From the IMG/VR virus record IMGVR_UViG_2778260992_000001: a stretch of DNA of 64,000 bases. One strand, given 5' to 3'. The position numbers and the translations under genes are program-made. The stretch is from a virus (Duplodnaviria; Heunggongvirae; Uroviricota; Caudoviricetes). Below, piece after piece: positions 4,484 to 62,311 of the stretch. Every line of letters starts with the position of its first letter. Position 1 is the first letter of the stretch. The notes beneath the pieces were generated by a model that worked only from the letters and a program-made list of their open reading frames with translations, had not been told where the DNA came from and did no database searches.

Positions 4484-4640
4484 CCCGTCTCCTTTATTTT
4501 AATTTGCGCAATTGTCGCCTTGTAGTGTACTCCAGCTACGACATTTAATCATTTATGAGAAATGCTGTTATCACATGGCAGACATAAGGCCATTTTGTTA
4601 CTATCAAGCCCCTTTTCACTACAAAGAAGTAATGCCTACT

Positions 4641-6674
4641 ATGACCCAAGTCGCGAAGAAAATTCTGGTGACGTGCGCGCTGCCGTACGCTAACGGCTCA
4701 ATCCACCTCGGCCATATGCTGGAGCACATCCAGGCTGATGTCTGGGTTCGTTACCAGCGAATGCGCGGCCACGAGGTTAATTTCATCTGTGCCGACGATG
4801 CCCACGGTACGCCGATCATGCTGAAAGCACAGCAGCTTGGTATCACACCGGAACAGATGATTGGCGAAATGAGTCAGGAACACCAGACTGATTTTGCAGG
4901 CTTTAACATCAGCTATGACAACTATCACTCGACGCACAGCGAAGAGAACCGTCAGTTGTCCGAGCTTATCTATACTCGCCTGAAAGAGAACGGTTTTATT
5001 AAAAACCGCACCATCTCTCAGCTGTACGATCCGGAAAAAGGCATGTTCCTGCCGGACCGTTTTGTGAAAGGCACCTGCCCGAAATGTAAAGCACCGGATC
5101 AATACGGCGATAACTGTGAAGTCTGCGGCGCTACTTACAGCCCGACTGAACTGATCGAGCCGAAATCGGTAGTTTCTGGTGCTACGCCGGTAATGCGTGA
5201 TTCCGAACACTTCTTCTTTGATCTGCCTTCTTTCAGCGAAATGTTGCAGGCATGGACCCGCAGCGGTGCGTTGCAGGAGCAGGTGGCAAACAAAATGCAG
5301 GAGTGGTTTGAATCTGGCCTGCAACAGTGGGATATCTCCCGCGATGCGCCGTACTTCGGTTTTGAAATTCCGAACGCACCGGGCAAATATTTCTACGTCT
5401 GGCTGGACGCGCCGATTGGCTACATGGGTTCCTTCAAGAATCTGTGCGACAAACGCGGCGACACTACCAGCTTCGACGAATACTGGAAGAAAGACTCCAC
5501 CGCCGAGCTGTACCACTTCATCGGTAAAGATATCGTTTACTTCCACAGCCTGTTCTGGCCTGCCATGCTGGAAGGCAGCAATTTCCGCAAGCCGACCAAC
5601 CTGTTTGTTCATGGCTATGTGACGGTGAACGGTGCGAAGATGTCCAAGTCTCGCGGCACCTTTATTAAAGCCAGCACCTGGCTGAATCATTTTGACGCTG
5701 ACAGCCTGCGTTACTACTACACTGCGAAACTCTCTTCGCGCATTGATGATATCGATCTCAACCTGGAGGATTTCGTTCAGCGCGTGAATGCCGATATCGT
5801 GAACAAAGTGGTTAACCTGGCCTCCCGTAATGCAGGCTTTATCAACAAGCGTTTTGACGGCGTGCTGGCAAGCGAACTGGCTGACCCGCAACTGTACAAA
5901 ACCTTTACTGATGCTGCTGAAGTGATTGGTGAAGCATGGGAAAGCCGCGAATTTGGTAAAGCGATTCGTGAAATCATGGCGCTGGCTGATCTGGCTAACC
6001 GCTATGTCGATGAACAGGCTCCGTGGGTGGTGGCGAAGCAGGAAGGGCGCGATGCCGATCTGCAGGCGATTTGCTCTATGGGCATTAACCTGTTCCGCGT
6101 GCTGATGACGTACCTGAAACCGGTACTGCCGAAACTGACTGAACGTGCAGAAGCATTCCTGAATACAGAACTGACCTGGGATGGTATCCAGCAACCGCTG
6201 CTGGGCCATAAAGTGAATCCGTTCAAGGCACTGTATAACCGCATCGACATGAAGCAGGTTGAAGCACTGGTGGAAGCATCCAAAGAGGAAGTAAAAGCCG
6301 CTGCCGCGCCAGTAACTGGCCCACTGGCAGATGATCCGATTCAGGAAACCATCACCTTTGACGACTTCGCCAAAGTTGACCTGCGCGTGGCTCTGATTGA
6401 AAACGCGGAGTTTGTCGAAGGTTCTGACAAACTGCTTCGCCTGACGCTGGATCTCGGTGGCGAAAAACGTAATGTCTTCTCCGGCATTCGTTCCGCTTAT
6501 CCAGATCCACAGGCACTGATTGGTCGTCACACCATTATGGTGGCCAACCTGGCTCCGCGTAAAATGCGCTTCGGTATCTCCGAAGGCATGGTGATGGCTG
6601 CTGGCCCCGGCGGGAAAGATATCTTCCTGTTAAGCCCGGATGCTGGTGCTAAACCAGGCCACCAGGTTAAGTAA
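4641..6674 (+). CDS. metG: methionine--tRNA ligase
   Basis: 677 aa from ATG at 4641 (track start 4512 is TTG); HIGH-like ANGSIHLGH and KMSKS motifs; matches E. coli MetG as recalled. Confidence 0.95.
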
Positions 6675-6694: not shown

Positions 6695-6721
6695 ATGCCC
6701 GGCAATACGCTGGGCATTTTC
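6695..6721 (+). terminator. putative metG terminator
   Basis: ATGCCC..GGGCAT stem followed by TTTTC. Confidence 0.45.
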
Positions 6722-6756
6722 ATTTAGACACAATCCCTTCTGATTTACACATACCC

Positions 6757-6773
6757 TAAAACAATTTGTTTTC
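6757..6773. promoter_or_regulatory. class-1 palindrome AAAACAA-N-TTGTTTT (operator-like)
   Basis: TAAAACAATTTGTTTTC; first of more than 10 copies. Confidence 0.6.
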
Positions 6774-6806
6774 TGCCTTTTGTTGATTGAGATAATAAAC
6801 CACATA

Positions 6807-6823
6807 AGAAAACAACTTGTTTT
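6807..6823. promoter_or_regulatory. class-1 palindrome
   Basis: AGAAAACAACTTGTTTT, 13 nt upstream of ORF 6836. Confidence 0.6.
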
Positions 6824-6835
6824 GGAGTGGTTTAA

Positions 6836-7135
6836 ATGTTGAACATTACCCAAGCCTACCAGGTGGCATTGATCAGCTCATCTCATACATCAGAGGAAGA
6901 TGCTCGCCGATTCATGATCGCAAGCAATGAGCTGGATTGGGTTTCACAAATTGAGTACGGTTGCATTGTCCACGCCGGGTTACAGGATGATGTCTGGAAA
7001 GACAACTTGCGTCGATATGGTATATCCGAGGGCGCGATTTCGAACATTCAGAAGGTACTTGATGTAGGCTTCGACTCTGTACATTTCGATTGTGGCGCAC
7101 CGGTCGTTGAAGGGCTTGAGTGCTGGCAATGGTAA
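6836..7135 (+). CDS. hypothetical protein
   Basis: ATG with GGAGTGG Shine-Dalgarno; first ORF after class-1 motifs. Confidence 0.5.
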   Translation: MLNITQAYQVALISSSHTSEEDARRFMIASNELDWVSQIEYGCIVHAGLQDDVWKDNLRRYGISEGAISNIQKVLDVGFDSVHFDCGAPVVEGLECWQW

Positions 7136-7171
7136 TCCGGCAATCGCTTCATACTAGATAACGGAGAATTT

Positions 7172-7357
7172 ATGCTTAAAGAAGACTCATATCTACTAAA
7201 GGCGCTTGAAATGCGTGGCGTTGAACCTACAGTGAAAAACGCCCACGATATCTACCTTCAGTTTTCACCGGAGCTGAAACGGCTCATAAATCAATACGGG
7301 GTTAATGACTCAAGTGTTAAAGCGATGATAGATGATGAATTAGACCATCTCATCTAA
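7172..7357 (+). CDS. hypothetical small protein
   Basis: ORF with Shine-Dalgarno. Confidence 0.4.
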   Translation: MLKEDSYLLKALEMRGVEPTVKNAHDIYLQFSPELKRLINQYGVNDSSVKAMIDDELDHLI

Positions 7358-7509
7358 TCGTTATCCTATGATAATGGTTTCACTTTGAGATTGTCATTTT
7401 TCATAGCCAAAGCTGATGTTTGTGGAAGGTGGATTGATAAACGGATGCGTATTTAGGTTATACAAGTGAGAAAATTGATAATATATAAAAGCGATTTTTA
7501 TGTGATGGA

Positions 7510-8079
7510 ATGGATGTGATGGAAACCCAGAACCAACAAACAAAACCTCTGAATAACATTTATGCGTGGATTCTAGCGTTCATGCCTTTCTTCTTTGGAG
7601 TATTGCCGGAAGAGTATACCAATTACGCTATTATAATTGGGGGTGTAACTACCATCGGTTTGTTAGTAGCTGACAGAATGGCTCTATCGGAGTCTGGCTG
7701 TGAACCACCTTCAATTCTATGGGGGGTATTCCTCCTGCCTGTCTATCTCTGGAAGCGCGCGACTATTACAAAAGGCAGCAGAGTGCCATTTATCATAATC
7801 GTTGCGTCGCTGGCTTGGATTATCTTCATCGGCATCCCACACAAGGACGAGGTTGCTCTTGAAGAAGCAGCCTGCCCTCTCGTGACAACTATTCTGAAAG
7901 AGAATAACGGTTCGACTGCACCAAAATGTATGAAGGTGACAATAGAGGACAAGGTGACGGATAAGTTCTATAGAGCAACGGCTACACTAGACAATGGTAA
8001 TGACATTAACATTACTCTGGAACTTACCGGTGACAGGAACTTCTACGTCCGTGTTCCAAATGTTTATCTGAACAACTAA
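7510..8079 (+). CDS. hypothetical integral membrane protein
   Basis: Several hydrophobic helices in translation (AWILAFMPFFFGVL, FIIIVASLAWIIFIGI). Confidence 0.5.
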   Translation: MDVMETQNQQTKPLNNIYAWILAFMPFFFGVLPEEYTNYAIIIGGVTTIGLLVADRMALSESGCEPPSILWGVFLLPVYLWKRATITKGSRVPFIIIVASLAWIIFIGIPHKDEVALEEAACPLVTTILKENNGSTAPKCMKVTIEDKVTDKFYRATATLDNGNDINITLELTGDRNFYVRVPNVYLNN

Positions 8080-8225
8080 CGGTTGCAACTTATTGATAAT
8101 GGCGGTCACAATTTGATTCTTTTCTATAAGAATCCGTTGATCGCCACTACTCCCCTTCCATACCTGCAATCATACCCTTAAATATCAATAGGTTATGGTT
8201 GTTTATACAAATAAGAAAACAACTA

Positions 8226-8945
8226 AATAACAGATCAACGAAACGTCAACGCTTTCACCCGATTTGGTCTAAAAAATTGACGTTTTCACACATCACTTCT
8301 TATACCCGTAACTCTACGCAGCAGACAGCGCCACAGCGTCCAATTTTCACCACAGACGACCCAACACACTACCAACAAAAACACACGCTCAAAATCGCTC
8401 CCGTTGCGTTACGCAACCATATAAACAACTTATTTTCAGGCATAACAAAACAACTAAATAACACACATGCCATTCCCAAAAACAACCAACCTCTTTATGG
8501 CAGGCTACCGAAAAGACCCACCTCTTCTCCCCAGGCTACCGGACAACCAACCTAACTTTCACAGGCAATCCGAAAACATTCATACGCGCGATACCCACGA
8601 CACGCCATTACCCAAACAGCGAAGAAATACCAGACTCACTGAAACCCCAACGAAGCCTGTTACCGCAAGGATTCTCTCAATCCCAAAAGACACGAAACAG
8701 AACAATCACGGGAAACGCCATTACCCAATACACGAATAACTACAAAAGCCTTTCAGGCACTCCAGACAAACAACTCAAACACAATAACGAAAGCAATCGC
8801 CCACCTGCCATTACTCCATACACGGAGAAGAACAATCACCAAAACGACGAGAACACCCCATAGAAGAACCACCGCAAAACGAACGAAACCACATACACCG
8901 ACAGAGAAAACAACACACCCAATTCACCAACAGAAATAGTCGCCG
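8226..8945. other. noncoding A+C-rich (G-poor) strand-skewed region
   Basis: About 0.7 kb without credible ORF; plus strand dominated by CAAC/ACAA/AAC runs. Confidence 0.55.
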
Positions 8946-9140
8946 TATAGGACATTCTGGAAGGAGTGAGCATTAACGCCTATAGAGAGGTTGAGACAGA
9001 TAAAACACAACATGTATAGCGAAGAAGCCAGGTATGTATAAGTGGGGATGGAAGGAGGGGTGTCGCCTCCTTTTTCGTATTTATTCAACTCCTGATTTTA
9101 TCCCCCGTAACACCCCTACGGTCAGCCTTCGGTCCATACA

Positions 9141-43788: not shown

Positions 43789-46700
43789 ATGTGGTACAGG
43801 GAAGGTACTATCACATTTACACAGGGTAGCAATACTCTGGTTGGGGCAGGGACAGCCTGGAACGTAACAGCTAATGGTGTGTTGCCTGGGATGATCGTCA
43901 TTGGCCCCGACAACAAGCTGTATGAGATCAAGCGCGTAACCAGTGATACGAACATTGTTCTCTCAGAACCTTATACCGGCGAAACTCAGTCTGAAGTTCC
44001 GTGCCGAATCATTACGACCTATGAAGGCGACTTAACACAGTTTAGCGCGCGCTTTACTGCACTAATGTCGCGTATGTCGGCTGATTCAAAGTCCATGCGC
44101 AGTTGGTTGACTGCTCTGGATGAGGTGACAATCGAGCGTGAAGACGGTACAGAAGTGACCGTTAAGCCGCTAATGCAGATCGTCAACGAGCACAACGAAA
44201 ACGTTGAGTGGTATAAAAATAACACTGACGCGATTGATGCTGCTGGCGACAAAGCTCGTGAGGCGGCGGCCAGTGCTGCCGCAGCAGCAGAAAGCGCCAA
44301 TACCGCTGGAGAAAAAGCCTCTCAAGCGTCTCAAAGTGCATCCGCTGCGGCATCCTCACAAAGTGCTGCAAGTGCGAGCGCAACTGCTGCGAAAAAATCT
44401 GAAACGAACGCACAAGCCGCAAAAGAAGCGGCAGCAGAATCAGCATCTGTAGCGTCGGCCAAAGCATCGGAGGCAGCAACATCTGCGTCCAGTGCCTCTG
44501 CATCTAAGGATGCAGCCAAAGCATCAGAGACTAACGCTTCATCGAGCGCAAACGCGGCAGCATCATCGGCAACAGAAGCTGCAAATTCGTCTAAGGCAGC
44601 AAAAACGTCAGAGGCAAACGCAAAAGCATCTGAAACGGCAGCCGAACAGAGTGCATCGTCTGCAAACAGTTCGAAATCTGCGGCAGAAGCGTCAGCAAGC
44701 GCAGCCTCAGCAAGTGCGGATAGTGCTTCATCAAGTGCAACAGCGGCAGGAAAATCTGCGGATAGCGCATTGTCATCAGCGACAACAGCTACCACAAAAG
44801 CGACAGAGGCGACGAGTCAGGCTACAGCTGCTAAAAATTCAGCATCTGCAGCAAAAACCTCTGAAACAAATGCAAAGACTTCAGAAGACAATGCTGCTTC
44901 CTCTAAGGCGGCAGCTGCTGAATCTGCAAGTTCTGCGTCTGCATCAGCCTCCTCAGCATCCGCTTCAAAAGATGAGGCTACCAAGCAGGCATCAGAAGCG
45001 AAGGGCAGTGCTTCAACGGCATCCACGAAAGCAACAGAGGCGGCAGGCAGTGCGACGGCTGCATCTCAGAGCAAAACTGCTGCTGAATCCGCTGCGACCC
45101 GTGCGGAAGCTGCTGCTGATCGTGCTGAAGAGATTGCCGGTGCGGTTGCGATGGAAGACGCAAGCCTTACAACTAAAGGTGTTGTGAAACTTAGCAGTGC
45201 TGTCGATAGCACCAGTGAATCGCTGGCCGCAACGCCAAAAGCAGTTAAAGCAGCCAATGACAATGCGAATAGCAGGGTGCCATCTAACCGAAAAATTAAC
45301 GGAAAAGCACTGACTGCGGATATAACATTAACGCCGAAAGATATTGGTACTTTAAATTCAGTAACGATGTCTTTCTCTGGCGGGGCTGGGTGGTTCAAAC
45401 TGGCTACGGTTACCATGCCACAAGCGAGTTCCATCGTTTACATCACATTGATTGGTGGTGCTGGATATAATGTTAACTCCCCTATGCAGGCTGGTATATC
45501 TGAACTTGTTCTTCGTGCGGGAAATGGAAATCCAAAAGGTCTTACTGGTGCGTTATGGCGAAGGACATCGGTTGGATTTACTAATTTTGCATGGGTGAAT
45601 ACATCCGGCGATACATATGATATTTATGTTGAGATTGGCAATTATGCGACGAGTGTAAATGTCCACTGGGATTGTACTGCAAATGCGTCAGTTTCTATTT
45701 ATACATCGCCAACATATTCAGCGAGTAAGCCTGCCAGCGTTACCGATGGTGTTGTTTATACGATGTATAGCTCACATCAGAAACCTACGCCATCAGATAT
45801 TGGAGCACTGCCAACAACCGGAGGAACAGTTTCTGGTCCGTTGTCTGTTACAGGCGGATTAACTGGTTCATTGAATGGTAATGCAAGTACAGCAACGAAA
45901 TTACAGACGACAAGAACTATCGGTGGAGTTGGTTTCGACGGTTCTGCCAATATTAATCTTCCAGGTGTAAACACTACGGGTAATCAGAACACCACTGGTA
46001 ATGCCGCAACTGCTACAAAACTACAGACGGCAAGAACTATCGGCGGCGTGAGCTTTGATGGTACTGCAAATATTAATTTGCCAGGTGTTAATACGACTGG
46101 TAATCAGAATACAACAGGTAATGCGGCTACTGCTACGAAGTTGCAGACTGCGCGTACTATTAATGGGGTGTCGTTTGACGGTTCGGCAAATATTTCCTTG
46201 TCACCAGCAAATATAGGTTGCCCGGCATCTCCTACTGGTTGGTTAACTACAGGAAGTAATGGCGGAGCAATAACAACAGCCCAGTTAGTGACGTTATTGC
46301 AAAATAATGGAGCCTTTAACACAAAGGCATGGATTGCTCGATGTGCGTGGGCCTATGCCAATAGCGCAACCATACCAAATAGTGAAACTGGTTGTGGCGT
46401 TATTCCATTGGCAGGAGCTGTTATAGAAGTATTTAATAACGGTAGTAGTTCAAATAATTATACGATCCGCATAACAACGGCCACAACGACAAGTGTTTCC
46501 GGTGCTCTCACTAATGCGGAGTTTATCTATGTATTTAATGGCACAGATTATTCTCCAGGATGGCGAAGAGTATATAACACGAAAAACAAACCAACTGCAT
46601 CTGACGTTGGTGCATTACCTCTTACCGGTGGTACATTATCTGGAGGTTTGACATCTTCTGGTGAGATCGTTTCAAAATATGCAAATGGTTTCCGCATTGC

Positions 46701-47817
46701 TTACGGTAGCTTTGGGTTCTTTATCCGTAATGACGGCGGCAGCACATATTTCATGCTAACAGCATCAGGAGATACGTTAGGTTCATGGAACGGCTTGCGA
46801 CCGATTACAATTAATAATACTAGCGGTGTTGTGTCTATTGGTAATGGACTAAATGTTACTGGTGGCGTAAATGGTAGTTTGAACGGTAATGCTTCAACAG
46901 CTACGAAGTTGCAAACAGCGAGAAACATCAATGGTGTTAAGTTTGATGGCTCAGGCGATATCAACATTAATACATTGGTATCTCGTGGCCGAGTTACGGC
47001 GTTAAGCGGCTCTACTCAAGGCACTGCTGGCATTCAAATGTACGAGGCGTACAACAATAGCTATCCGACCACGTATGGCAACGTATTGCACATGAAAGGT
47101 GCGAGTGCTGCTGGCGAGGGTGAGTTGCTTATTGGCTGGAGTGGTACGAGCGGTGCACATGCGCCGGTTTTCATTCGCTCCCGAAGAGATACCACTGATG
47201 CAGCATGGTCAGCGTGGGCACAGGTATATACCGCTAAGGATTCAATCCCTGGTGTGAATACAACCGGTAATCAGAACACTACTGGTAATGCTGCCACCGC
47301 CACAAAATTGCAGACAGCAAGGAAAATTGCTGGTGTGGCGTTTGATGGCTCTGCCGATATTACTTTGACTGCGGCTAACCTTAATGCCTATACGAAAACA
47401 GAGGTAACAAACCTTCTAAGTTCCTATGTGAAGAGCAGTTCTCTTCCAAGCATGACTGTGCGAACTTCCTCTGTTTCAGGTGGGGATATGGGCATGAGTT
47501 TGTCCGCATTCATTAGCCACCTTAAATCAAATGGGGCGTTTAGCAAAAGTTATTGGATTGGCTTTGGCGATGCTATGGGATTCAATGCTGGCAGTATCAA
47601 CAATATAACGGGATTTGGTGCTGTAGAATTAGCAGAATCCATAATCGAAGTTTTTAATCTACCTAATGGTGATTATACAATTCGTTTAACGACGTCACAC
47701 AAAGCTGACTACGGTGGGATTACAAACGCAATCCTCGTTTATCACTACCGCAGTAATAGAAACCCGGCAGGTCAATGGCTTAAATTTGCCGGTACTCTTG
47801 GGGCTACAAACAACTGA
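43789..47817 (+). CDS. side tail fibre protein
   Basis: 1342 aa; Ala/Ser-rich low-complexity region, repeated GNQNTTGNAATATKLQTARTIGGVSFDG units, distinct C-terminal domain. Confidence 0.8.
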   Translation: MWYREGTITFTQGSNTLVGAGTAWNVTANGVLPGMIVIGPDNKLYEIKRVTSDTNIVLSEPYTGETQSEVPCRIITTYEGDLTQFSARFTALMSRMSADSKSMRSWLTALDEVTIEREDGTEVTVKPLMQIVNEHNENVEWYKNNTDAIDAAGDKAREAAASAAAAAESANTAGEKASQASQSASAAASSQSAASASATAAKKSETNAQAAKEAAAESASVASAKASEAATSASSASASKDAAKASETNASSSANAAASSATEAANSSKAAKTSEANAKASETAAEQSASSANSSKSAAEASASAASASADSASSSATAAGKSADSALSSATTATTKATEATSQATAAKNSASAAKTSETNAKTSEDNAASSKAAAAESASSASASASSASASKDEATKQASEAKGSASTASTKATEAAGSATAASQSKTAAESAATRAEAAADRAEEIAGAVAMEDASLTTKGVVKLSSAVDSTSESLAATPKAVKAANDNANSRVPSNRKINGKALTADITLTPKDIGTLNSVTMSFSGGAGWFKLATVTMPQASSIVYITLIGGAGYNVNSPMQAGISELVLRAGNGNPKGLTGALWRRTSVGFTNFAWVNTSGDTYDIYVEIGNYATSVNVHWDCTANASVSIYTSPTYSASKPASVTDGVVYTMYSSHQKPTPSDIGALPTTGGTVSGPLSVTGGLTGSLNGNASTATKLQTTRTIGGVGFDGSANINLPGVNTTGNQNTTGNAATATKLQTARTIGGVSFDGTANINLPGVNTTGNQNTTGNAATATKLQTARTINGVSFDGSANISLSPANIGCPASPTGWLTTGSNGGAITTAQLVTLLQNNGAFNTKAWIARCAWAYANSATIPNSETGCGVIPLAGAVIEVFNNGSSSNNYTIRITTATTTSVSGALTNAEFIYVFNGTDYSPGWRRVYNTKNKPTASDVGALPLTGGTLSGGLTSSGEIVSKYANGFRIAYGSFGFFIRNDGGSTYFMLTASGDTLGSWNGLRPITINNTSGVVSIGNGLNVTGGVNGSLNGNASTATKLQTARNINGVKFDGSGDININTLVSRGRVTALSGSTQGTAGIQMYEAYNNSYPTTYGNVLHMKGASAAGEGELLIGWSGTSGAHAPVFIRSRRDTTDAAWSAWAQVYTAKDSIPGVNTTGNQNTTGNAATATKLQTARKIAGVAFDGSADITLTAANLNAYTKTEVTNLLSSYVKSSSLPSMTVRTSSVSGGDMGMSLSAFISHLKSNGAFSKSYWIGFGDAMGFNAGSINNITGFGAVELAESIIEVFNLPNGDYTIRLTTSHKADYGGITNAILVYHYRSNRNPAGQWLKFAGTLGATNN
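44220..45160 (+). repeat. Ala/Ser/Thr/Lys/Glu low-complexity coding region in tail fibre
   Basis: GCN-rich codon repeats; spawns spurious ORFs in other frames. Confidence 0.75.
45870..46200 (+). repeat. tandem tail-fibre repeat units (coding), further copies near 46875 and 47250
   Basis: Three consecutive copies of about 120 nt with near-identical protein sequence. Confidence 0.75.
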
Positions 47818-52039: not shown

Positions 52040-52807
52040 TTATGCCGCGCTAACACTATGTTCAGTCCTAACCACTCCAACCTTCACAAAAGGGCTACCG
52101 TAGCTTGGTGGCTTCTTGATTAATTTGCCAACATACAGTTTTCTAATATGCTCATCGGCTATTCTGCCAACAAATTCATAACGTTTTGTGTCGGGGCCAA
52201 GAGCTATATCCCTTGTAAAGTACTGCTGAGAACCGGCTTTGACCCAGCATTCAATCTGATAAACTTCCATTATCAGCCCACCATATGTAGCGTAGGCATA
52301 TTTGAGATTCTCGTCTCTTGGAACCTTTGCCCATACGCCACGCGTAGCTTCATATAATGCCAGAGCGGACATTCCTGACTTGTAGGTGCTGTTTAGCAGG
52401 AAGGCAAGACCGGCGTGCTCAGGAGCAATTTCAGTTTCCTCTTGCAGCACTAAGTGATGGTAGGCGTCCAGTGATATTCTGCCCATCATGGAACCACTTC
52501 CTCGTACCTTATTCGTAAGCTCTCCGACCCCCATAAGGTCGATGCATGTCGCCTCAACAAGTTTGGCTGTGGTTTCATCCATACCATGACGAAGTATATC
52601 TATGCCTAATTTTTTATTAGCCAAAAGTTCTTTGATCCGCATGGATTTGGGAGAGTCATCGGGATACTTGATGTGATCGAGACAACGAGTCGATTTGCCT
52701 TTTCCTATGTAAAACGGTCTTTTCATCTTGTCTTCTGTATCATAGAGACAGTAAACATAGTATTTAGCCTTATCCAATGATCTCGCGTATACCGATAAAT
52801 CGTCCAT
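52040..52807 (-). CDS. GIY-YIG nuclease-domain protein (possible homing endonuclease)
   Basis: N-terminal YVYCLYD..(11)..PFYIGKGK motif; opposite strand to neighbours. Confidence 0.6.
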   Translation of the reverse strand: MDDLSVYARSLDKAKYYVYCLYDTEDKMKRPFYIGKGKSTRCLDHIKYPDDSPKSMRIKELLANKKLGIDILRHGMDETTAKLVEATCIDLMGVGELTNKVRGSGSMMGRISLDAYHHLVLQEETEIAPEHAGLAFLLNSTYKSGMSALALYEATRGVWAKVPRDENLKYAYATYGGLIMEVYQIECWVKAGSQQYFTRDIALGPDTKRYEFVGRIADEHIRKLYVGKLIKKPPSYGSPFVKVGVVRTEHSVSAA

Positions 52808-53875: not shown

Positions 53876-55216
53876 ATGACCGAACTTTGCCATACAGGAC
53901 GCGGGCTGTCCGAAGAGTTTGATGAAGATTTCCAGAACAGACTGACGGCATATTTTTGTCGTGATCACGAGTTTCTTACTCGTGCGGGAGATCTGGTTGT
54001 GCCTAGCCAATTTGCCAATGCGGCCAATGCCATATTGGTTAATATGGTTTCGGGCTATTACCGTATGTACAAGAGCGCGCCCTCTTCATCTGCAATTCTG
54101 GATATGCTTAAGCGTGCGAAACGCGATAAGACTATCCGTGAGGAACTATTCGCCGATGTTGTTGCTGCGTTTAAGCGCATCCTTGCAGAAAAATTGTCCG
54201 ATACCTCGTACATGGTTGACCAGGTATCAACCTTCGCAAAAAGCGTAGCGTTTGATGATGCTCTGATTAAGGCTGCTGAACTGAAAGAGAAGGGCGACTT
54301 TCAGGGGGCGATGGCAATCATGGCCAAGGTTCAGCAGATTGGATCGAATGAAGCGACCGGAATCTATGACTACTACACCTCCGCAAGTGAGCGATTGAAA
54401 GCGCGTGAATATGAGGCTTCAGAGGAGTATGTACCAAACAGTATTACAACTGGACTCCCTCTTCTCGATAGGTTGCTGTACCAAAAAGGCTGGGCAAAGC
54501 GCGAAATGGTGCTCTTCATGGGGTTCGCTAAATCCGGTAAATCGACCGCAATGGGTGAGTTTTCCATAAACGCAACGCTTGCTGGCTACAATGTTCTGTA
54601 TCTCTCGCTGGAGGTTCACACCAACATTTTGTCCGATCGTTTTGATGCAAGATTGTCGGAGACGGAAATGTCCAAGCTGGTGGAACGGCGCGATGAAGTT
54701 CATCGTAAGTTGGCAGAGTTGGGAGCCACGAAGGGGATTGGTAGTTTGTGGGTTGTTGAGCGTCCGTCAGGAAGTATGTCACCGGCAGATCTGGACCGTA
54801 TGCTTAACAGCATGAAAGCCAATGGCATGGTGCCTGACATGGTTGTTGTCGACTACGCAGATTTGATGCGTGCCAGTTATGACCTTCGTGATGATCGCGC
54901 CAATATTCGTAGTATCTACACCGATTTACGTGCTCTTTATGACAAACATAACGTTGCTGGGATCACGGCATCGCAGACAAACCGTGAAGGTGGCGCGTCA
55001 GAAGTTGCCACAATGATGCACGCTGCCGACAACATCGAAAAAGTACGTATTGCTGACCTGGTAATAACGATCAACAAAACCGAAGAAGAAGAAGCGAAAG
55101 GAGAGGCTCGTCTCTACTTTGCTGGTTCGCGTAACCAGCAGGGAGGGATCAGCATTCGCGTTAAACAAAACCTCGAACAAATGCGCTTCATTGAGCGAAT
55201 CTTAGACGTTACCTAA
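53876..55216 (+). CDS. DnaB-like replicative helicase
   Basis: C-terminal RecA-like domain with Walker A GFAKSGKST and DnaB-type downstream motifs; 446 aa. Confidence 0.75.
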   Translation: MTELCHTGRGLSEEFDEDFQNRLTAYFCRDHEFLTRAGDLVVPSQFANAANAILVNMVSGYYRMYKSAPSSSAILDMLKRAKRDKTIREELFADVVAAFKRILAEKLSDTSYMVDQVSTFAKSVAFDDALIKAAELKEKGDFQGAMAIMAKVQQIGSNEATGIYDYYTSASERLKAREYEASEEYVPNSITTGLPLLDRLLYQKGWAKREMVLFMGFAKSGKSTAMGEFSINATLAGYNVLYLSLEVHTNILSDRFDARLSETEMSKLVERRDEVHRKLAELGATKGIGSLWVVERPSGSMSPADLDRMLNSMKANGMVPDMVVVDYADLMRASYDLRDDRANIRSIYTDLRALYDKHNVAGITASQTNREGGASEVATMMHAADNIEKVRIADLVITINKTEEEEAKGEARLYFAGSRNQQGGISIRVKQNLEQMRFIERILDVT

Positions 55217-55220
55217 AAAA

Positions 55221-55247
55221 TAAGCGTGGAGAACACCTCCACGCTTG
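55221..55247 (+). terminator. hairpin AAGCGTGGAG-AACA-CCTCCACGCTT
   Basis: 10-bp stem right after helicase stop; weak U-tract. Confidence 0.5.
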
Positions 55248-55297
55248 ATTCATTGGTGAAACAACTTTTCTTTTGCCAAACCACAAAAGAAAAACAC

Positions 55298-56479
55298 ATG
55301 AGCCTTTATGTTATATCAACATTTAGGTTGGTCACAATATTGCCTGTTAAAAGTGGAATTATCGTGAGCGAGCTGAAAGAGCTAATTACCGAATTAGATT
55401 TTGAACAATGGTTGGATACTGAAGGTATCGTTTATCGACGTGGAGGCGTGAGTGCTCGCGGTCGTGAAGTGAATATCAAGGAGTGTCCGGTATGCGGCAG
55501 CTCCAACTGGAAGGTATATTTCAATCTGACCAGTGGCGTCGGTAAATGCTTCGCTGGTGATCATCCCGAAGAGATTCAGTTCAATAAGCTGGTCTTCCTC
55601 AAGCACTACAGCGGCAAATCACGACGACAGTTCGAGGAATATGTGCAGAACGCTCTTCTTTCCCAGGGGTGGGCACCAAAGAAAGAAGAGATAGTGCTTG
55701 CAAGCACAGTCGAGTTAGAGGGACCACTTGCACTCCCTCGTCATTACGAACTTCCTATAGATGGCCGTCTTCCAGACTATCTGGTTGAACGAAACATATC
55801 GCCTGAAATGGCAAAGTATTTTGACCTACGATACTGCGTCGAAGGCAAGCACGCTTATGTTGATCCGTATACAGATCAGGTTAAAGGACAGATATTCGAT
55901 ATGCGAATACTGATACCGGTTTACGATCTGGATGGGGTAATGAAGACATTTCAGGGGCGAGACATTACCGGTACAGCTGAACGTCGCTACCTCTTTCCTA
56001 TGCAGCTTCCAGCTTCAGGTAAGTTTCTCTACAACGGCCATAATGCGCTCGGCAAACAGACTGTAGTTGTCTGTGAGGGGGCGTTCGATGTTATGGGGGT
56101 TAAACGAGCTATTTTTGATGAAGAAACATTACGTGATTACGTGGAACCGATAGGAACGTTCGGGATGCATCTATCTGGCAACACCACTCAGGATGCAGAA
56201 GATCAGTTGGGCGCGTTCCTGACGCTCAAGGCGCGTGGATTACGTAATGTGATCATGATGTGGGATAGTGAAAAGCAAGCTATACGCAACACGATGGCCG
56301 CAGCCAGGCGATTGACCAGTATTGGTCTTAATGTCAAAGTTGCGTGTTTGGGCGAGGAAGGACTCGACCCCGGCGATGCGACACCGGGGCAGATTATCAA
56401 AGCCTACTATTGCGCAAAACCTTACTCACGACAGCTTGAACTTTTAAGCAAGGTAAAAGGTATAGCAGCATTAGTTTGA
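55298..56479 (+). CDS. DnaG-type DNA primase (zinc ribbon plus TOPRIM)
   Basis: CPVCGSS..(17)..KCFAGDH zinc-binding motif; TOPRIM-like VVVCEGAFDVMG and MMWDSE; start uncertain (ATG 55298 or GTG 55364). Confidence 0.7.
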   Translation: MSLYVISTFRLVTILPVKSGIIVSELKELITELDFEQWLDTEGIVYRRGGVSARGREVNIKECPVCGSSNWKVYFNLTSGVGKCFAGDHPEEIQFNKLVFLKHYSGKSRRQFEEYVQNALLSQGWAPKKEEIVLASTVELEGPLALPRHYELPIDGRLPDYLVERNISPEMAKYFDLRYCVEGKHAYVDPYTDQVKGQIFDMRILIPVYDLDGVMKTFQGRDITGTAERRYLFPMQLPASGKFLYNGHNALGKQTVVVCEGAFDVMGVKRAIFDEETLRDYVEPIGTFGMHLSGNTTQDAEDQLGAFLTLKARGLRNVIMMWDSEKQAIRNTMAAARRLTSIGLNVKVACLGEEGLDPGDATPGQIIKAYYCAKPYSRQLELLSKVKGIAALV

Positions 56480-57508
56480 ACCAGTATTAGTCACGTAAAC
56501 ATTGACCGAAAATGATTTAACTTCTGTGTTGAAGTTGTCAGTCATTACCGCGAGGTAGGCATTCTTGGTATCTCTGAATTGCTTCAGGATGATTTGAACG
56601 TTATCGGTGCAAACAAACGAGGTAGCCAGATTGCCTCCTTTCTCTGAAAAATCCTTTAGGAAAGTGCAGTCAATTTTGCCATCATTAGCGGTGAAGGTGG
56701 CATCATCACCCTGCCAGGTAAATGTTGCGTTAACGCCTTTATCAATGGATTTAGCAATAAGTCGTTGAGTGGAGGATTTTGCTTTAGATCTTGCTGCTGA
56801 TGGTTGGTATTTACCGCTTTCTTTTAGTTCTGCAATGTAATCACAGCCATTTTTATCTTCTTTATCGCAAGCTGCCTGATAAAGCTCAGCTGCTTTTTTA
56901 TAATCTTTTTTAACCCCTTCACCATACTCATACATAATGCCAAGATTCGCCAATGCAGATGCACTGCCTAGTTCGATTCCTTTTTTATAATACTCTATTG
57001 CCTTTTTGTAGCTTTTTGGCACGCCTGCGCCAACATAATATAACTGTCCTAAATATGACGCAGATTCAGGGTCGCCAGCCTCTACTGCAAGTTTGTGATA
57101 TTTCAGGGAAAGTTTTTGGTCTTTCTTACCCGCAAGTCCTTTATGATAAATAACACCCAGATTGTGATAAGAGTTGCCTCCAGCTGCATCACCAGCTTTC
57201 TTAAAGAGTTCCTCTGCCTTTTTGAAATTTTTATCAACCCCATACCCAAGGGCATACATTATACCTAGAGCATTAAACGCTTCTTTGTTCCCCTTAGAAG
57301 TCGCCAGTTCAAGCCATTTTCTGGCTTCATCGTAGTTTTTTTCGACACCATGAATACCTTTCATATAGTCGATACCTAAAGCACTCTGTGACTCAACGTC
57401 GCCTGCTTTTGCCGCATCGATCAGCTTTTGTATTTCATAGGCATGTGCACTCCCCGAAACAAGTAATAGCGACAACATAAAGAAAGATATTGGTTTGAAA
57501 TGTTTCAT
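56471..57508 (-). CDS. secreted Sel1-like repeat (SLR) protein
   Basis: Signal peptide MKHFKPISFFMLSLLLVSGSAHA; repeated A-x-x-LG-x-xY..G-x-GV..K/D..A-x-x-WY-like units; extra C-terminal domain. Confidence 0.7.
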   Translation of the reverse strand: MKHFKPISFFMLSLLLVSGSAHAYEIQKLIDAAKAGDVESQSALGIDYMKGIHGVEKNYDEARKWLELATSKGNKEAFNALGIMYALGYGVDKNFKKAEELFKKAGDAAGGNSYHNLGVIYHKGLAGKKDQKLSLKYHKLAVEAGDPESASYLGQLYYVGAGVPKSYKKAIEYYKKGIELGSASALANLGIMYEYGEGVKKDYKKAAELYQAACDKEDKNGCDYIAELKESGKYQPSAARSKAKSSTQRLIAKSIDKGVNATFTWQGDDATFTANDGKIDCTFLKDFSEKGGNLATSFVCTDNVQIILKQFRDTKNAYLAVMTDNFNTEVKSFSVNVYVTNTGSN

Positions 57509-57627
57509 TTTTGGATTTTCACAAGATGGTTAGGTGGTTGTGGCTACTCGGTGTAAGGCTTTGTAATCACCGATTGGTAAGGTTACTTCAATTTAGCTTA
57601 ACTGTCAGCATACCCAATCGCCGAAAA

Positions 57628-57689: not shown

Positions 57690-58472
57690 ATGAAAGACGA
57701 AATTCAGAAATTAGCCTGCGACATCATTGATAAAACTGGTTTAGAAATCAGCGAGAGCAATCGGCTAGACATCATTGAAAAAGCCGTCAATACGGCAATG
57801 GCTCATATCGCCACTCGTTTAGTCGAGATCCCGCTACCGGGGCTACCTTATCTGAAGGTTAAGTTGCGCGTATGGGGCGAACCTGCACATGCACGACGTT
57901 CTGCATTAGTTGTTTTTGTACGCAAAGAAAACTTACGAACTCTAAAAGTGCAGGTTGGGGCGTGGTTTGATGGCAGAGTCATCTATACAGATACCATTAT
58001 CTGTCCTCCAGGTGACGAACATATTGAAGCCGTCATTCGAGAATCAATTCGAGCTATGCGCAGTTTAGCTTTGCTGGAAGACAAGCAAAACTTTGAAGAT
58101 TACTTGCTGTCGGTAAAAGCTGAACCAACATTGTCTCTGAAAGCCGATTTCGTCACCCCGACAAATCTGTTGGAGGTTTTGATTAATAAAGGGGCTAATG
58201 ATGCTGTAAACCTAATCAGGGAGAGCGAATATTCGACTCTTTGCGACATGTGCAAAAGCCAGTTGGATCTTGTGCATATCATTGTTGATGCGGGGAAGGC
58301 GTGTGATGGCGTAATGGCGGAATTTGCTGGGAAGATGGTCAGGATTGCTAACGAATTACCGATGATAGAGCAAGAGGCCAAATCATACGCCACCAATCAT
58401 GTCACAGAGCTTCTTGCCCCCTATCGCTTAGAAAGCGATCAGCGCAAGATGATTAGCTGGGGAAGTTGGTAA
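57690..58472 (+). CDS. hypothetical protein
   Basis: ATG after AGGAG. Confidence 0.5.
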   Translation: MKDEIQKLACDIIDKTGLEISESNRLDIIEKAVNTAMAHIATRLVEIPLPGLPYLKVKLRVWGEPAHARRSALVVFVRKENLRTLKVQVGAWFDGRVIYTDTIICPPGDEHIEAVIRESIRAMRSLALLEDKQNFEDYLLSVKAEPTLSLKADFVTPTNLLEVLINKGANDAVNLIRESEYSTLCDMCKSQLDLVHIIVDAGKACDGVMAEFAGKMVRIANELPMIEQEAKSYATNHVTELLAPYRLESDQRKMISWGSW

Positions 58473-58539: not shown

Positions 58540-59010
58540 GTGAAAGCTGATTTGTCAAAAATCCCTTCTATTTCAGGAAATAACGGTTATTCACTTCGTT
58601 GTGAGGAAGTAAAGATAAACGGTGAGTCGGCATATTGCAGCTATTCCGTTTGCCAGCACACCATTCTTGCCTTCAAAGAAAACCGTCTTCCTCGAACTTC
58701 TTTCCAGTCGTGCGCAACCGCTATTAAAGCAGGCAAATGTAAGGCGTTAAAAATGATGGTTGAAGAGATTCGTAAAGGAGAATCTCTGTATTTCGCAGAT
58801 ATGACCGCACTCATTAAGGAGGTTGAAGAACGGAATAAACAAGCCAGATCTATAAAACGAAAACGTGACAGTGTAACGATTAATAGCATGGTTAAGAAGA
58901 GCGCCACATCACAAACAGCGATCACTGACGTGTATGCGGCGTTGCTTGAAGAAACAACAAAAGAAACACATGAGCAAATCGATCAACATATGGAGGCAAA
59001 ACAACAATGA
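58540..59010 (+). CDS. hypothetical Cys-rich protein
   Basis: GTG start; N-terminal C-x-x-x-C/C-Q-H cysteines; overlaps ligase start. Confidence 0.4.
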   Translation: MKADLSKIPSISGNNGYSLRCEEVKINGESAYCSYSVCQHTILAFKENRLPRTSFQSCATAIKAGKCKALKMMVEEIRKGESLYFADMTALIKEVEERNKQARSIKRKRDSVTINSMVKKSATSQTAITDVYAALLEETTKETHEQIDQHMEAKQQ

Positions 59011-60329
59011 AAAAGTTGATCGCACTTAAGCATAAGCTGGACGAAATGAAAGCTATGGGAACCAATGCAAAAAAAGAGGCATTGGCCAACATGGATGACT
59101 TTGAACAAAGCATGGTTTCATTGATGCTCAACCCTTTCATCCGTTTTGGGGTAAAGAAATACAAAGTGGCAGAGCCGCTTAGTGAGTCCGTCCCAAGTGA
59201 CGAAAAAGCCATTGATGTACTGAATAAGCTGGCCTCTCGCGAGCTGACGGGGAACGCAGCAATAGCTGCTGTTGAGTCTATCGTGGCGTCAATGTGCGCC
59301 GATGGGCAGGACGTGTTCCGTCGTTTCCTCTTAAAAGACCCGAAAGCGGGTGTTGGGATTAGCCTATGCAACAAGGTTTTTGAAAATCCCATTCCGAAAT
59401 TCGAGGTGCAGCTGGCGTCACCGTATAAAGAAAAAGGCGACAAATACCCCTTCAAGCCAAACCCTAAAGCAAAATGGCCGATGATTGGCAGCCTTAAGCT
59501 CGATGGTTTGCGAGTAATTTGCGAGGTTATTGTTGACGAAGAAGAGGTTAACTTCCTTTCTCGTACTGGTAATCCAATCACGTCTCTCGATCACCTAAAG
59601 CCAGCCATGCTCGAATTAGGCAAACTTTCAGGCCACAAACACATCTTCTTCGATGGTGAAGGCACAGCCGGTTCATTTAACCAGTCCGTATCTGCATTGC
59701 GCAAAAAGAACGTGCAGGCAATTGGCGCTATTTATCATGTTTTCGACTTCTTCCTACCGGAATGGCGAGCACAGGCTAAATCCAAAGAGTATGCAAAGAC
59801 ATGTATGAAGCTGAAAGAGCGCCTGGCTATGCTCGTGGCGTTGTTCAAAAACGATCGCAGTGAAGGCTACGCACAAGACATTCACCTGCATCCGTTCTAC
59901 ATCATCCATAGCCACGAAGACTTCATCGAACGCTTCATGAAACGCCTGGACGATAACGAAGAAGGGGAGATGGGCAAAGATCCGAACTCTGTTTACGAGT
60001 TTAAACGTACCCGCAGCTGGTGGAAGTTAAAAGACGAAGATTCAGAAGATGGTGAAATTATCGATTTTGAGCCGGGCGACCCGGACTCTGGTTTTGCCAA
60101 CACGCTTGGAAAAATTGTTATTCGTCTTGAAAACGGCGTCATCGTTCGTGCGAGCGGCATTAAGCATAAATATCTGGACGAGATCTGGAACAACAAAGAG
60201 AAGTACCGTGGTCGCATTGTCGAGGTTCATTGTCACGAGAAAACACCTGATGGCAGCTTACGCCACCCACGACTGAAATGGCCGCGTTGCTTACGCGATA
60301 CCGAAGATCGAATCGGAGATAAAGAATGA
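59007..60329 (+). CDS. ATP-dependent DNA ligase
   Basis: Adenylation motif I KLDGLR (Lys in KxDG) and downstream nucleotidyltransferase-like motifs; 440 aa. Confidence 0.8.
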   Translation: MKKLIALKHKLDEMKAMGTNAKKEALANMDDFEQSMVSLMLNPFIRFGVKKYKVAEPLSESVPSDEKAIDVLNKLASRELTGNAAIAAVESIVASMCADGQDVFRRFLLKDPKAGVGISLCNKVFENPIPKFEVQLASPYKEKGDKYPFKPNPKAKWPMIGSLKLDGLRVICEVIVDEEEVNFLSRTGNPITSLDHLKPAMLELGKLSGHKHIFFDGEGTAGSFNQSVSALRKKNVQAIGAIYHVFDFFLPEWRAQAKSKEYAKTCMKLKERLAMLVALFKNDRSEGYAQDIHLHPFYIIHSHEDFIERFMKRLDDNEEGEMGKDPNSVYEFKRTRSWWKLKDEDSEDGEIIDFEPGDPDSGFANTLGKIVIRLENGVIVRASGIKHKYLDEIWNNKEKYRGRIVEVHCHEKTPDGSLRHPRLKWPRCLRDTEDRIGDKE

Positions 60330-61753: not shown

Positions 61754-61828
61754 GATGGTGTAGCTCAGCGGTAGAGCAGTTGGCTGTTAACCAACTGGTC
61801 GGTGGTTCGAATCCACCCACCATCGCCA
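61754..61828 (+). tRNA. tRNA-Asn (GUU)
   Basis: Manual cloverleaf: 7-bp acceptor GATGGTG/CACCATC, anticodon loop CTGTTAA, T-loop GGTTCGAATCC, 3' CCA; differs from E. coli tRNA-Asn. Confidence 0.8.
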
Positions 61829-61833
61829 ATTTA

Positions 61834-61920
61834 GGGGAGTTAGTCCGTAGAGGTAGCGGTGTAGACTGTAAATCTACTGTCATGGCGACTCGGGTGGTTC
61901 GACTCCATCACTCCCCACCA
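61834..61920 (+). tRNA. tRNA-Tyr (GUA), class II
   Basis: Acceptor GGGGAGT/ACTCCCC, anticodon stem-loop GTAGA-CTGTAAA-TCTAC, long variable arm, 3' CCA. Confidence 0.75.
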
Positions 61921-61924
61921 AATT

Positions 61925-62000
61925 GCCGGTTTAGCTCAGTTGGTAGAGCAGTCGCTTTGTAAGCGAATGGCCAGCGGTTCGAGTCCGTTAACCGGCACCA
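61925..62000 (+). tRNA. tRNA-Thr (UGU)
   Basis: Acceptor GCCGGTT/AACCGGC, D-arm GCTC..GAGC, anticodon loop TTTGTAA, T-loop TTCGAGT, CCA; one G-A mismatch at top of anticodon stem. Confidence 0.65.
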
Positions 62001-62224
62001 ATACAACGATAAGATCATTACGGTTAATCGTCGTTCATGTGCACAATGACTGGTCGAAAGGTAGTGATCTTACCGTTGTGGTGGATTCGCAGACTGATGC
62101 GATAGCTTTCTTGGATGTTAGGGAAATGCGGCCGCAAATCTTCCCTTTCGCGAGCGGTGATCGTCCGTAGTCCTAATTGGCTGCACCGTATGCCGGAGAT
62201 TCAGTACCGGCCACCACAACGGCC

Positions 62225-62311
62225 GGAGAGTAGGGAGCATGGTGCTCAAGCGGTCTTGAAAACCGTCCCATTGCGCAAGCGATGATGGTTCGATTCCATT
62301 ACTCTCCGCCA
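62225..62311 (+). tRNA. tRNA-Ser (UGA), class II (D-arm irregular)
   Basis: Acceptor GGAGAGT/ACTCTCC, anticodon stem-loop GCGGT-CTTGAAA-ACCGT, long variable arm, T-arm GATGG-TTCGATT-CCATT, CCA. Confidence 0.6.

Follow-up and report, generated by a model that had tools for sequence, protein, structure and literature searches.

According to our analysis, the SSU5-like phage-plasmid of Escherichia coli in IMG/VR virus record IMGVR_UViG_2778260992_000001 (64,000 nucleotides, the whole of which is here called the window) carries an accessory cargo gene of the moron type, which is not a replication gene. It occupies positions 56471..57508 on the minus strand (345 codons plus a stop codon, ATG start) and encodes a protein with a predicted export signal, an array of Sel1 repeats and a C-terminal beta-barrel; below we refer to the Sel1 gene and the Sel1/barrel protein. 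The gene is functional, because the ratio of non-synonymous to synonymous substitution rates (dN/dS) is 0.03–0.06 over the barrel and 0.11–0.17 over the repeat array, and with values of 0.03–0.17 it is under purifying selection. Judging by its sequence, the product probably acts in the host cell envelope.

The first-pass annotation of this DNA had described a secreted Sel1-like repeat protein encoded antisense within the replication module, which corresponds to the helicase–primase–ligase block. The list of open reading frames (ORFs) agrees with this position, and no plus-strand ORF beyond 53–66 amino acids runs across the gene. The product is RefSeq WP_001718051.1; it is identical to an annotated copy on plasmid p1 of E. 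coli C6, bears the RefSeq name “tetratricopeptide repeat protein” and matches PHROG 8741 (“unknown function”) with E = 1.2e-143. The gene family is thus already in databases under these two labels, and a literature search covering Sel1 proteins of SSU5 and other phage-plasmids, the tetratricopeptide proteins of pECOH89 and pHCM2 and the RefSeq accessions found no paper on it. New in the present work are the architecture of Sel1 repeats plus a rare, unassigned barrel, the boundaries of the cassette and the mobility of the gene, the unit-wise length variation with a recombinant allele, and a conserved 5' motif.

Distribution and mobility of the accessory cassette

Accessory cargo of the lysogenic-conversion type is the best reading of the Sel1 gene because of the pattern of its presence and absence. 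Among 5,426 complete E. coli genomes, the primase of the phage-plasmid was present in 252, and 61 of these (~24%) had barrel-coding DNA, in every case on a plasmid. The gene is absent from PhiR41_1, Cyrano and CMS-2020a, the phage records nearest to the window (94–97% identity), and from the more distant SSU5, in which the DNA match stops inside the primase gene and tblastn revealed no copy. A role in replication was rejected, since most backbones lack the gene and hence can do without it. The same absences, together with the 61 carriers, mark a gene that is neither universally conserved in related phages nor structural. The first-pass annotation had also called it unusual phage cargo; Sel1 proteins are indeed rare among phages (any tblastn match to the Sel1 protein in 15 of 50,697 phage records), but in this phage-plasmid group the gene is common, and it had already been placed in a PHROG and named in RefSeq.

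The cassette itself, delimited by blastn junctions and the annotation of PhiR41_1, spans 56425..57614, i.e., 1190 bp in place of 55 nucleotides in PhiR41_1. It comprises the last ~18 codons of the primase, the Sel1 gene and the 5' region of the latter, and its guanine-plus-cytosine (GC) content is 40.4%, compared with 46.2% for the window and 45–48% for the neighbouring genes. The primase 3' end (56425–56479) is variable, and the primases of cassette-free phages carry a different 55-nucleotide tail. Presence or absence with clean junctions among close genomes, deviant GC content and occurrence in unrelated mobile contexts are the features of a moron. Well-known morons and lysogenic-conversion genes are bor and lom of phage lambda and the gene for the exclusion protein Spackle of T4. 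Like these, the Sel1 gene is a stand-alone envelope gene, variably present, of low GC content, in opposite orientation and located between conserved phage genes; it has, however, no sequence or fold in common with them, and its promoter is a candidate only.

Homologs were found in various other contexts. The Enterobacter cloacae plasmid pCY-CTX (559–3814 of the extracted locus) has the gene in the same position, with a transposon of the Tn3 family just upstream that cuts the homolog of the window's 260-amino-acid gene (57690–58472) to 108 amino acids. This insertion beside the Sel1 gene indicates that the junction acts as an insertion hotspot. A P2-like IMG/VR contig (L038, 6308–8677) encodes a homolog of 413 amino acids with a lipobox-like signal, inserted in a myovirus tail module where it is flanked by the genes for the tail tube (FII) and the tail assembly chaperone (gpE), and an E. 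kobei copy, truncated by an insertion sequence, adjoins prophage tail-fibre genes. In the chromosome of E. whittamii, the cassette (6707–8813 of its locus) lies between the trpA/yciB-side genes and tonB, and it keeps a 3'-end fragment of an SSU5-type primase (86% amino acid identity) and a lipoprotein fragment; these remnants indicate that the cassette moved from a phage-plasmid into the chromosome. Stand-alone chromosomal genes occur in Pantoea and likewise in Leclercia, and a 185-amino-acid ORF is linked to the gene only in Pantoea. The Pseudenterobacter copy lies in an island with a fragment of CdiA, a toxin of contact-dependent inhibition (CDI), a situation seen once among about ten distinct contexts.

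The common E. coli cassettes with alleles of 381 or 417 amino acids, and only these alleles, are accompanied by the divergently transcribed gene of a lipoprotein of 137 amino acids (MSKNKLILTGALLSLFALVGC..., lipobox LVGC; PHROG 2320, unknown function). Its gene was found in pM160133_p3 (4551–4964 of the locus L002), in four further loci (L003 and L011–L013) and in many IMG/VR loci, and it is absent from the cassette of the window and from the Enterobacter type. A distant Sel1 gene, apparently split, was observed in the IncF plasmid pNDM-SCNJ07 of Enterobacter hormaechei (L005, 3989–4646) between an entry-exclusion gene and traD, a site usually occupied by the surface-exclusion gene traT.

The Sel1 gene lies on the strand opposite to its neighbours. 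The block includes a DnaB-like helicase (53876–55216) and the primase (55226–56479), which is convergent with the Sel1 gene and overlaps it by 9 nucleotides. On its other side, the gene sits upstream of plus-strand genes leading, via two unknown ones, to an ATP-dependent DNA ligase (59007–60329). Genes seen beside it in the loci examined encode the primase, PHROG proteins of unknown function and a lipoprotein. According to Pfeifer et al. (2022; PMC9600943), the insertions of resistance genes into SSU5-like phage-plasmids cluster at a single locus, flanked by a DNA ligase gene among others, and this fits a cargo hotspot at the position of the Sel1 gene. Close to the replication block, a further gene in opposite orientation (52040–52807, minus strand) codes for a LEM-3-like GIY-YIG nuclease domain (Pfam E = 5.5e-7).

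Upstream of the Sel1 gene, ~75–100 nucleotides before the ATG, lies the motif CTGACAGTTAAGCTAAATTGAAGTAAC (57582..57608, minus strand; CTGACA-N17-TAACCT). In the copies from E. coli, Enterobacter and Pseudenterobacter, a block of ~27 nucleotides, CTGACA-N17-TA[AC]C[CA]T within AAATTxAAGTAxC, is invariant, though the surrounding upstream regions cannot be aligned. Most phage-plasmid copies have the motif, as do two chromosomal ones, including that of E. whittamii, i.e., it travels with the gene, which it may serve as a promoter or regulatory site of its own.

Architecture and allelic variation of the Sel1/barrel protein

The N-terminus has the features of a predicted Sec signal cleaved by signal peptidase I: residues 1–23 (MKHFKPISFFMLSLLLVSGSAHA; 57440..57508, minus strand) comprise MKHFK, a hydrophobic core (11-residue Kyte–Doolittle peak of 2.7) and A-H-A, with predicted cleavage before Y24 and no lipobox cysteine. 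These regions and the hydropathy profile bear out the signal peptide of the first-pass annotation. An N-terminal signal is kept in all full-length homologs, and in some of them it is of the lipoprotein type (LLGC in the Pantoea homolog L016, SVGC in the P2-like contig).

The helical part of the protein (residues 24–233; 56810..57439, minus strand) is built of five Sel1 units capped by a helix at either end (N-cap and C-cap), as delimited by Pfam, AlphaFold2 and Foldseek. Pfam Sel1 (PF08238) matched in five stretches with E = 1e-37 and 127.6 bits, the gathering cutoff being 30.7. In the AlphaFold2 model, built from a family alignment of 14 sequences, residues ~25–230 had a pLDDT (predicted local distance difference test) value of >90 and formed 12 helices, which can be read in the model as the N-cap, five canonical units (residues 39–74, 75–108, 109–146, 147–182 and 183–218) and the C-cap. 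Thus, the Sel1 repeats of the first-pass annotation stand, but there are five canonical units and not about six. When the full-length protein was compared with the PDB using Foldseek, only the helical part found matches; EsiB/c5321 (4bwr), LceB and LpnE of Legionella, HcpC and Sel1-like repeat (SLR) proteins of Oxalobacter matched with E ~1e-12 (entries including 8sxq, 6deh and 1ouv), whereas the match of PA5086–88, immunity proteins of a type VI secretion system (T6SS), was weaker (E = 3e-5 to 7e-4). The solenoid both superposes on solved SLR structures and exceeds the Pfam gathering score, as an SLR protein should. The NCBIfam scan gave only repeat matches far below threshold (MerG, AlgK, MotX, ExoR).

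A basic linker (residues 234–248; 56765..56809, minus strand; isoelectric point 10.3), variable in the alignment, connects the solenoid to the C-terminal domain; residues 239–259 had a pLDDT of <50 in the full-length model. The C-terminal domain (residues 249–345; 56474..56764, minus strand), which is ~97 residues long, was poorly modelled in the full-length run. Modelled alone from an alignment of 11 sequences that included two distant relatives, it formed an eight-stranded beta-barrel with a pLDDT of 88.5 and a predicted template modelling score of 0.78; the extra C-terminal domain of the first-pass annotation is therefore real.

The barrel is a rare family without a family assignment. It had no match in Pfam, and a profile of the domain against PDB sequences gave nothing significant. 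A word-index search with the domain recovered only three proteins. With HMMER, an exhaustive scan over the representatives of 1.84 billion protein clusters found the barrel, at E ≤ 0.001, in only eight clusters, one of which is a spurious protein with immunoglobulin-like repeats. Among 185,579 species-representative genomes, five encode it (E. whittamii, Pantoea, two Leclercia and Pseudenterobacter), and the family is also present in 24 IMG/VR viral contigs. At the level of fold, the barrel resembles DUF4251, DUF1842, Cap15, the Bacteroides fragilis T6SS immunity protein BtaiB, avidins and outer-membrane barrels, as well as the periplasmic inhibitors PliC (4mir, 3oe3), MliC/YdhA (2f09) and PhiA (7dpy) and Neisseria ACP. 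Its fold neighbours in BFVD are stand-alone phage proteins of 105–118 amino acids, one annotated as “putative lysozyme inhibitor” and one as “lipoprotein.”

Exactly two cysteine pairs are found in every homolog, C-x7-C (C214/C222) at the junction of the fifth unit and the C-cap and C-x18-C (C281/C300) in the barrel, and in most homologs the mature protein has no other cysteines. These invariant pairs fit an oxidising compartment and, together with the lipoprotein-type signals of some homologs, favour an extracytoplasmic envelope location. Of the word “secreted” in the first-pass annotation, export is retained, while the same evidence speaks for a place in the periplasm or envelope more than for release into the medium.

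The C-x7-C pair invites comparison with the Helicobacter proteins HcpB and HcpC (1KLX, 1OUV). A C-x7-C disulfide pair in each repeat is the hallmark of the Hcp family. The phage-plasmid protein shares with this family an exported Sel1 solenoid (HcpC match, E = 1e-11) and a C-x7-C pair bridging repeat helices; in Hcp proteins, however, every unit has the pair and there is no barrel, whereas here the pair is restricted to the last unit, the other units being free of cysteine. The protein thus lacks the hallmark of the Hcp family.

The gene occurs in alleles of 345, 381 and 417–420 amino acids, which differ by steps of 36 amino acids, i.e., one Sel1 unit. The 345-amino-acid allele of the window is a minority form (three complete E. 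coli genomes and three IMG/VR contigs), and it is a mosaic. A blastn comparison with the 381-amino-acid allele showed backbone-level homology (94–96% DNA identity) that extends over the primase, the barrel and the last Sel1 unit up to 57001, a recombination breakpoint inside the gene at ~57001/57002, and homology resuming at ~57619. The allele-specific segment (57002..57618), which contains codons 1–169 and the 5' region, is replaced by a different segment of 1315 bp in pECOH89-type plasmids. Accordingly graded is the protein identity between the two alleles: ~52% over residues 24–169, 75% over residues 170–233 and 98–99% over the barrel.

By Nei–Gojobori analysis, the N-terminal array of the window differs from other alleles at ~0.8 of synonymous sites (pS, saturated) and 0.29 of non-synonymous sites (pN). 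The saturation is confined to the N-terminal part of the window allele; the array dN/dS given above refers to comparisons among the 381-amino-acid alleles, and the primase, as a reference, had values of 0.02–0.10. Because the synonymous sites are saturated as well, the mosaic is explained by the import of an old, diverged array by recombination. The saturated pS and the low dN/dS among the 381-amino-acid alleles led us to reject diversifying selection on the array. A donor of the array was not found, the best match being the E. whittamii copy (61.5% identity).

Candidate functions in the cell envelope

On balance, and with moderate confidence, we favour the reading that the Sel1/barrel protein is a periplasmic product of moron cargo which would benefit the envelope of the lysogen and not the replication or assembly of the phage; this view draws on sequence comparison and structural models. 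From the same comparisons we infer that the gene may have a role in lysogenic conversion, as the first-pass annotation had suggested. After export by Sec, the protein would fold in the periplasm with two disulfides, the solenoid would bind a protein partner, and the invariant barrel would add a second, conserved activity of an inhibitor-like or an anchoring kind. The gain for the lysogen envelope would most likely be protection against a superinfecting phage, a T6SS or CDI effector, or lysozyme. Sel1 proteins that act as neutralising binders support the binder part of this proposal: Sel1E neutralises VgrG4 (PMC7108748), and PA5086–88 are a second precedent.

Several observations weigh against this proposal. 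The signal peptide was assigned from sequence features rather than by a trained predictor. Across the contexts compared, the Sel1 gene has no cognate toxin or partner gene as a constant companion. The upstream motif has a poor −10 element and was not called by a sigma-70 consensus scan, a Shine–Dalgarno sequence is absent before the ATG, and the consensus promoter and terminator scan gave nothing convincing upstream or downstream of the gene. The likeness of the barrel to other proteins is at fold level only (3–18% identity), with avidins, outer-membrane barrels and DUF4251 scoring equally or better, and the Pfam scan gave no match to MliC (PF09864) at E ≤ 1. PADLOC gave no substantial defence match; the sole match, to PtuA (E = 7.6e-4, 16 bits), has no aligned stretch and is most likely helical-repeat noise. 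Membership in a defence system was rejected, since the scan gave no meaningful match.

The main rival is a host-interaction or colonisation factor, i.e., a Sel1 protein that, at the surface or on outer-membrane vesicles (OMVs), would bind a mammalian protein such as secretory immunoglobulin A (SIgA) or another immunoglobulin; we consider this possible but rather unlikely. The best structural match of the solenoid is EsiB/c5321 of extraintestinal pathogenic E. coli (4bwr, E = 3e-12, 31% identity over 206 columns), ahead of LceB, LpnE and HcpC. EsiB binds SIgA (PMC3735183), and the EsiB-like ImbA is a plasmid-borne immunoglobulin binder on the OMVs of Acinetobacter (PMC13524772). EsiB and the phage-plasmid protein share the Sel1 alpha-solenoid, the occurrence in E. 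coli and the status of a strain-variable accessory gene, and the Sel1 gene is carried by gut and clinical E. coli of human and livestock origin. However, this likeness is that of a generic SLR fold: EsiB has 467–490 amino acids and 11 units without a C-terminal barrel and is reported on chromosomes only (PMC13524772), whereas the phage-plasmid protein has five units plus the barrel, and the binding region of EsiB (PMC13524772) cannot be mapped at 31% identity. Plant- and environment-associated Pantoea and Leclercia have homologs too, the lipoprotein-type signals of some homologs suit a periplasmic anchor, and the gene has no link to any secretion system other than Sec.

An orphan immunity protein, which would neutralise a periplasm-acting T6SS or CDI toxin of competitors and whose immunity would be spread by the phage-plasmid, appears unlikely. 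It has its precedents in the T6SS immunity Sel1 proteins PA5086–5088/Tli5 of Pseudomonas aeruginosa and Sel1E of Klebsiella pneumoniae, which share with our protein the Sel1 solenoid and neutralise toxins by binding (PMC7108748). The genes of these proteins adjoin the cognate effector and encode no barrel, whereas the phage-plasmid gene has a barrel and no effector neighbour in any phage-plasmid copy; one chromosomal homolog, that of Pseudenterobacter, lies in a CDI island and the others do not, so that a toxin-island context was met once among some ten. Moreover, dN/dS, where it can be measured, is well below 1, and the fold matches to PA5086–88 are weaker than those to EsiB, LceB and HcpC.

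There is also a slim chance that the barrel is the founder of a new inhibitor family, acting on enzymes in the periplasm, with a PliC/MliC/PhiA-like fold, fused to an exchangeable Sel1 targeting array and used by phage-plasmids and prophages to disarm an envelope-attacking enzyme. Its target could be host lysozyme, a peptidoglycan hydrolase delivered by a T6SS or, in a Spackle-like exclusion, the tail lysozyme of a superinfecting phage, and swapping or resizing the array (five, six or seven units) would retarget or retune the protein. The barrel shares only 7–11% identity with PliC, MliC and PhiA (4MIR, 3OE3, 2F09, 7DPY), and the unrelated DUF4251, DUF1842, Cap15 and avidins score similarly; the known inhibitors are stand-alone proteins, whereas this barrel is fused to a Sel1 array. 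It matches no MliC/PliC profile, and a motif resembling SGxxY, the inhibitor-loop motif of MliC and PliC, was not found in it by eye.

A function in the phage life cycle (lytic growth, e.g., by modulating endolysin or spanin, or periplasmic assembly or exit) is very improbable: the gene is surrounded by phage genes, in the P2-like contig it has the same orientation as the tail-gene operon that contains it, and the barrel resembles small-barrel inhibitors of peptidoglycan hydrolases (PliC, PhiA), but a lytic-cycle role is made unlikely by the distribution of the gene, which is missing from SSU5, PhiR41_1, Cyrano and ~76% of backbones, is transcribed against the flow of the neighbouring genes in phage-plasmids and stands alone in the chromosomes of Pantoea and Leclercia.

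The host element and the significance of its cargo

The locus of the window was found in identical form on the E. coli plasmids NZ_CP050499.1, NZ_CP195946.1 and NZ_CP014490.1. Beyond the ligase region, four tRNA genes (Asn-GTT, Tyr-GTA, Thr-TGT and Ser-TGA) lie at 61754–62311; they are annotated on an identical plasmid copy too. The region 8100–9000 has no long ORF and is strongly strand-asymmetric (GC skew −0.35, AT skew +0.31); it includes three tandem units of ~31 nucleotides (8480–8571) and further short direct repeats, and it could be the iteron or partition-site region of the plasmid replicon. The ORF 43789–47817 (1342 amino acids), presumably a tail fibre, contains ~2.3–2.5 copies of a 120-bp (40-amino-acid) tandem repeat at 45877–46194.

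SSU5-like phage-plasmids, which are common in E. coli, Enterobacter and Klebsiella, have resistance genes at this same locus, while their cargo other than resistance is almost unstudied. With about a quarter of the E. coli elements carrying it, the Sel1 gene is among the more frequent of such cargo, and it is mobile among phage-plasmids, integrated prophages and chromosomes. If the protein had none of the functions considered above, it would be an ordinary uncharacterised Sel1 protein. If, on the other hand, exclusion, toxin immunity, lysozyme resistance or the binding of a host factor holds true, the gene would provide a selectable trait that helps to explain the persistence of these elements, and a new family of periplasmic inhibitors or binders would be defined.

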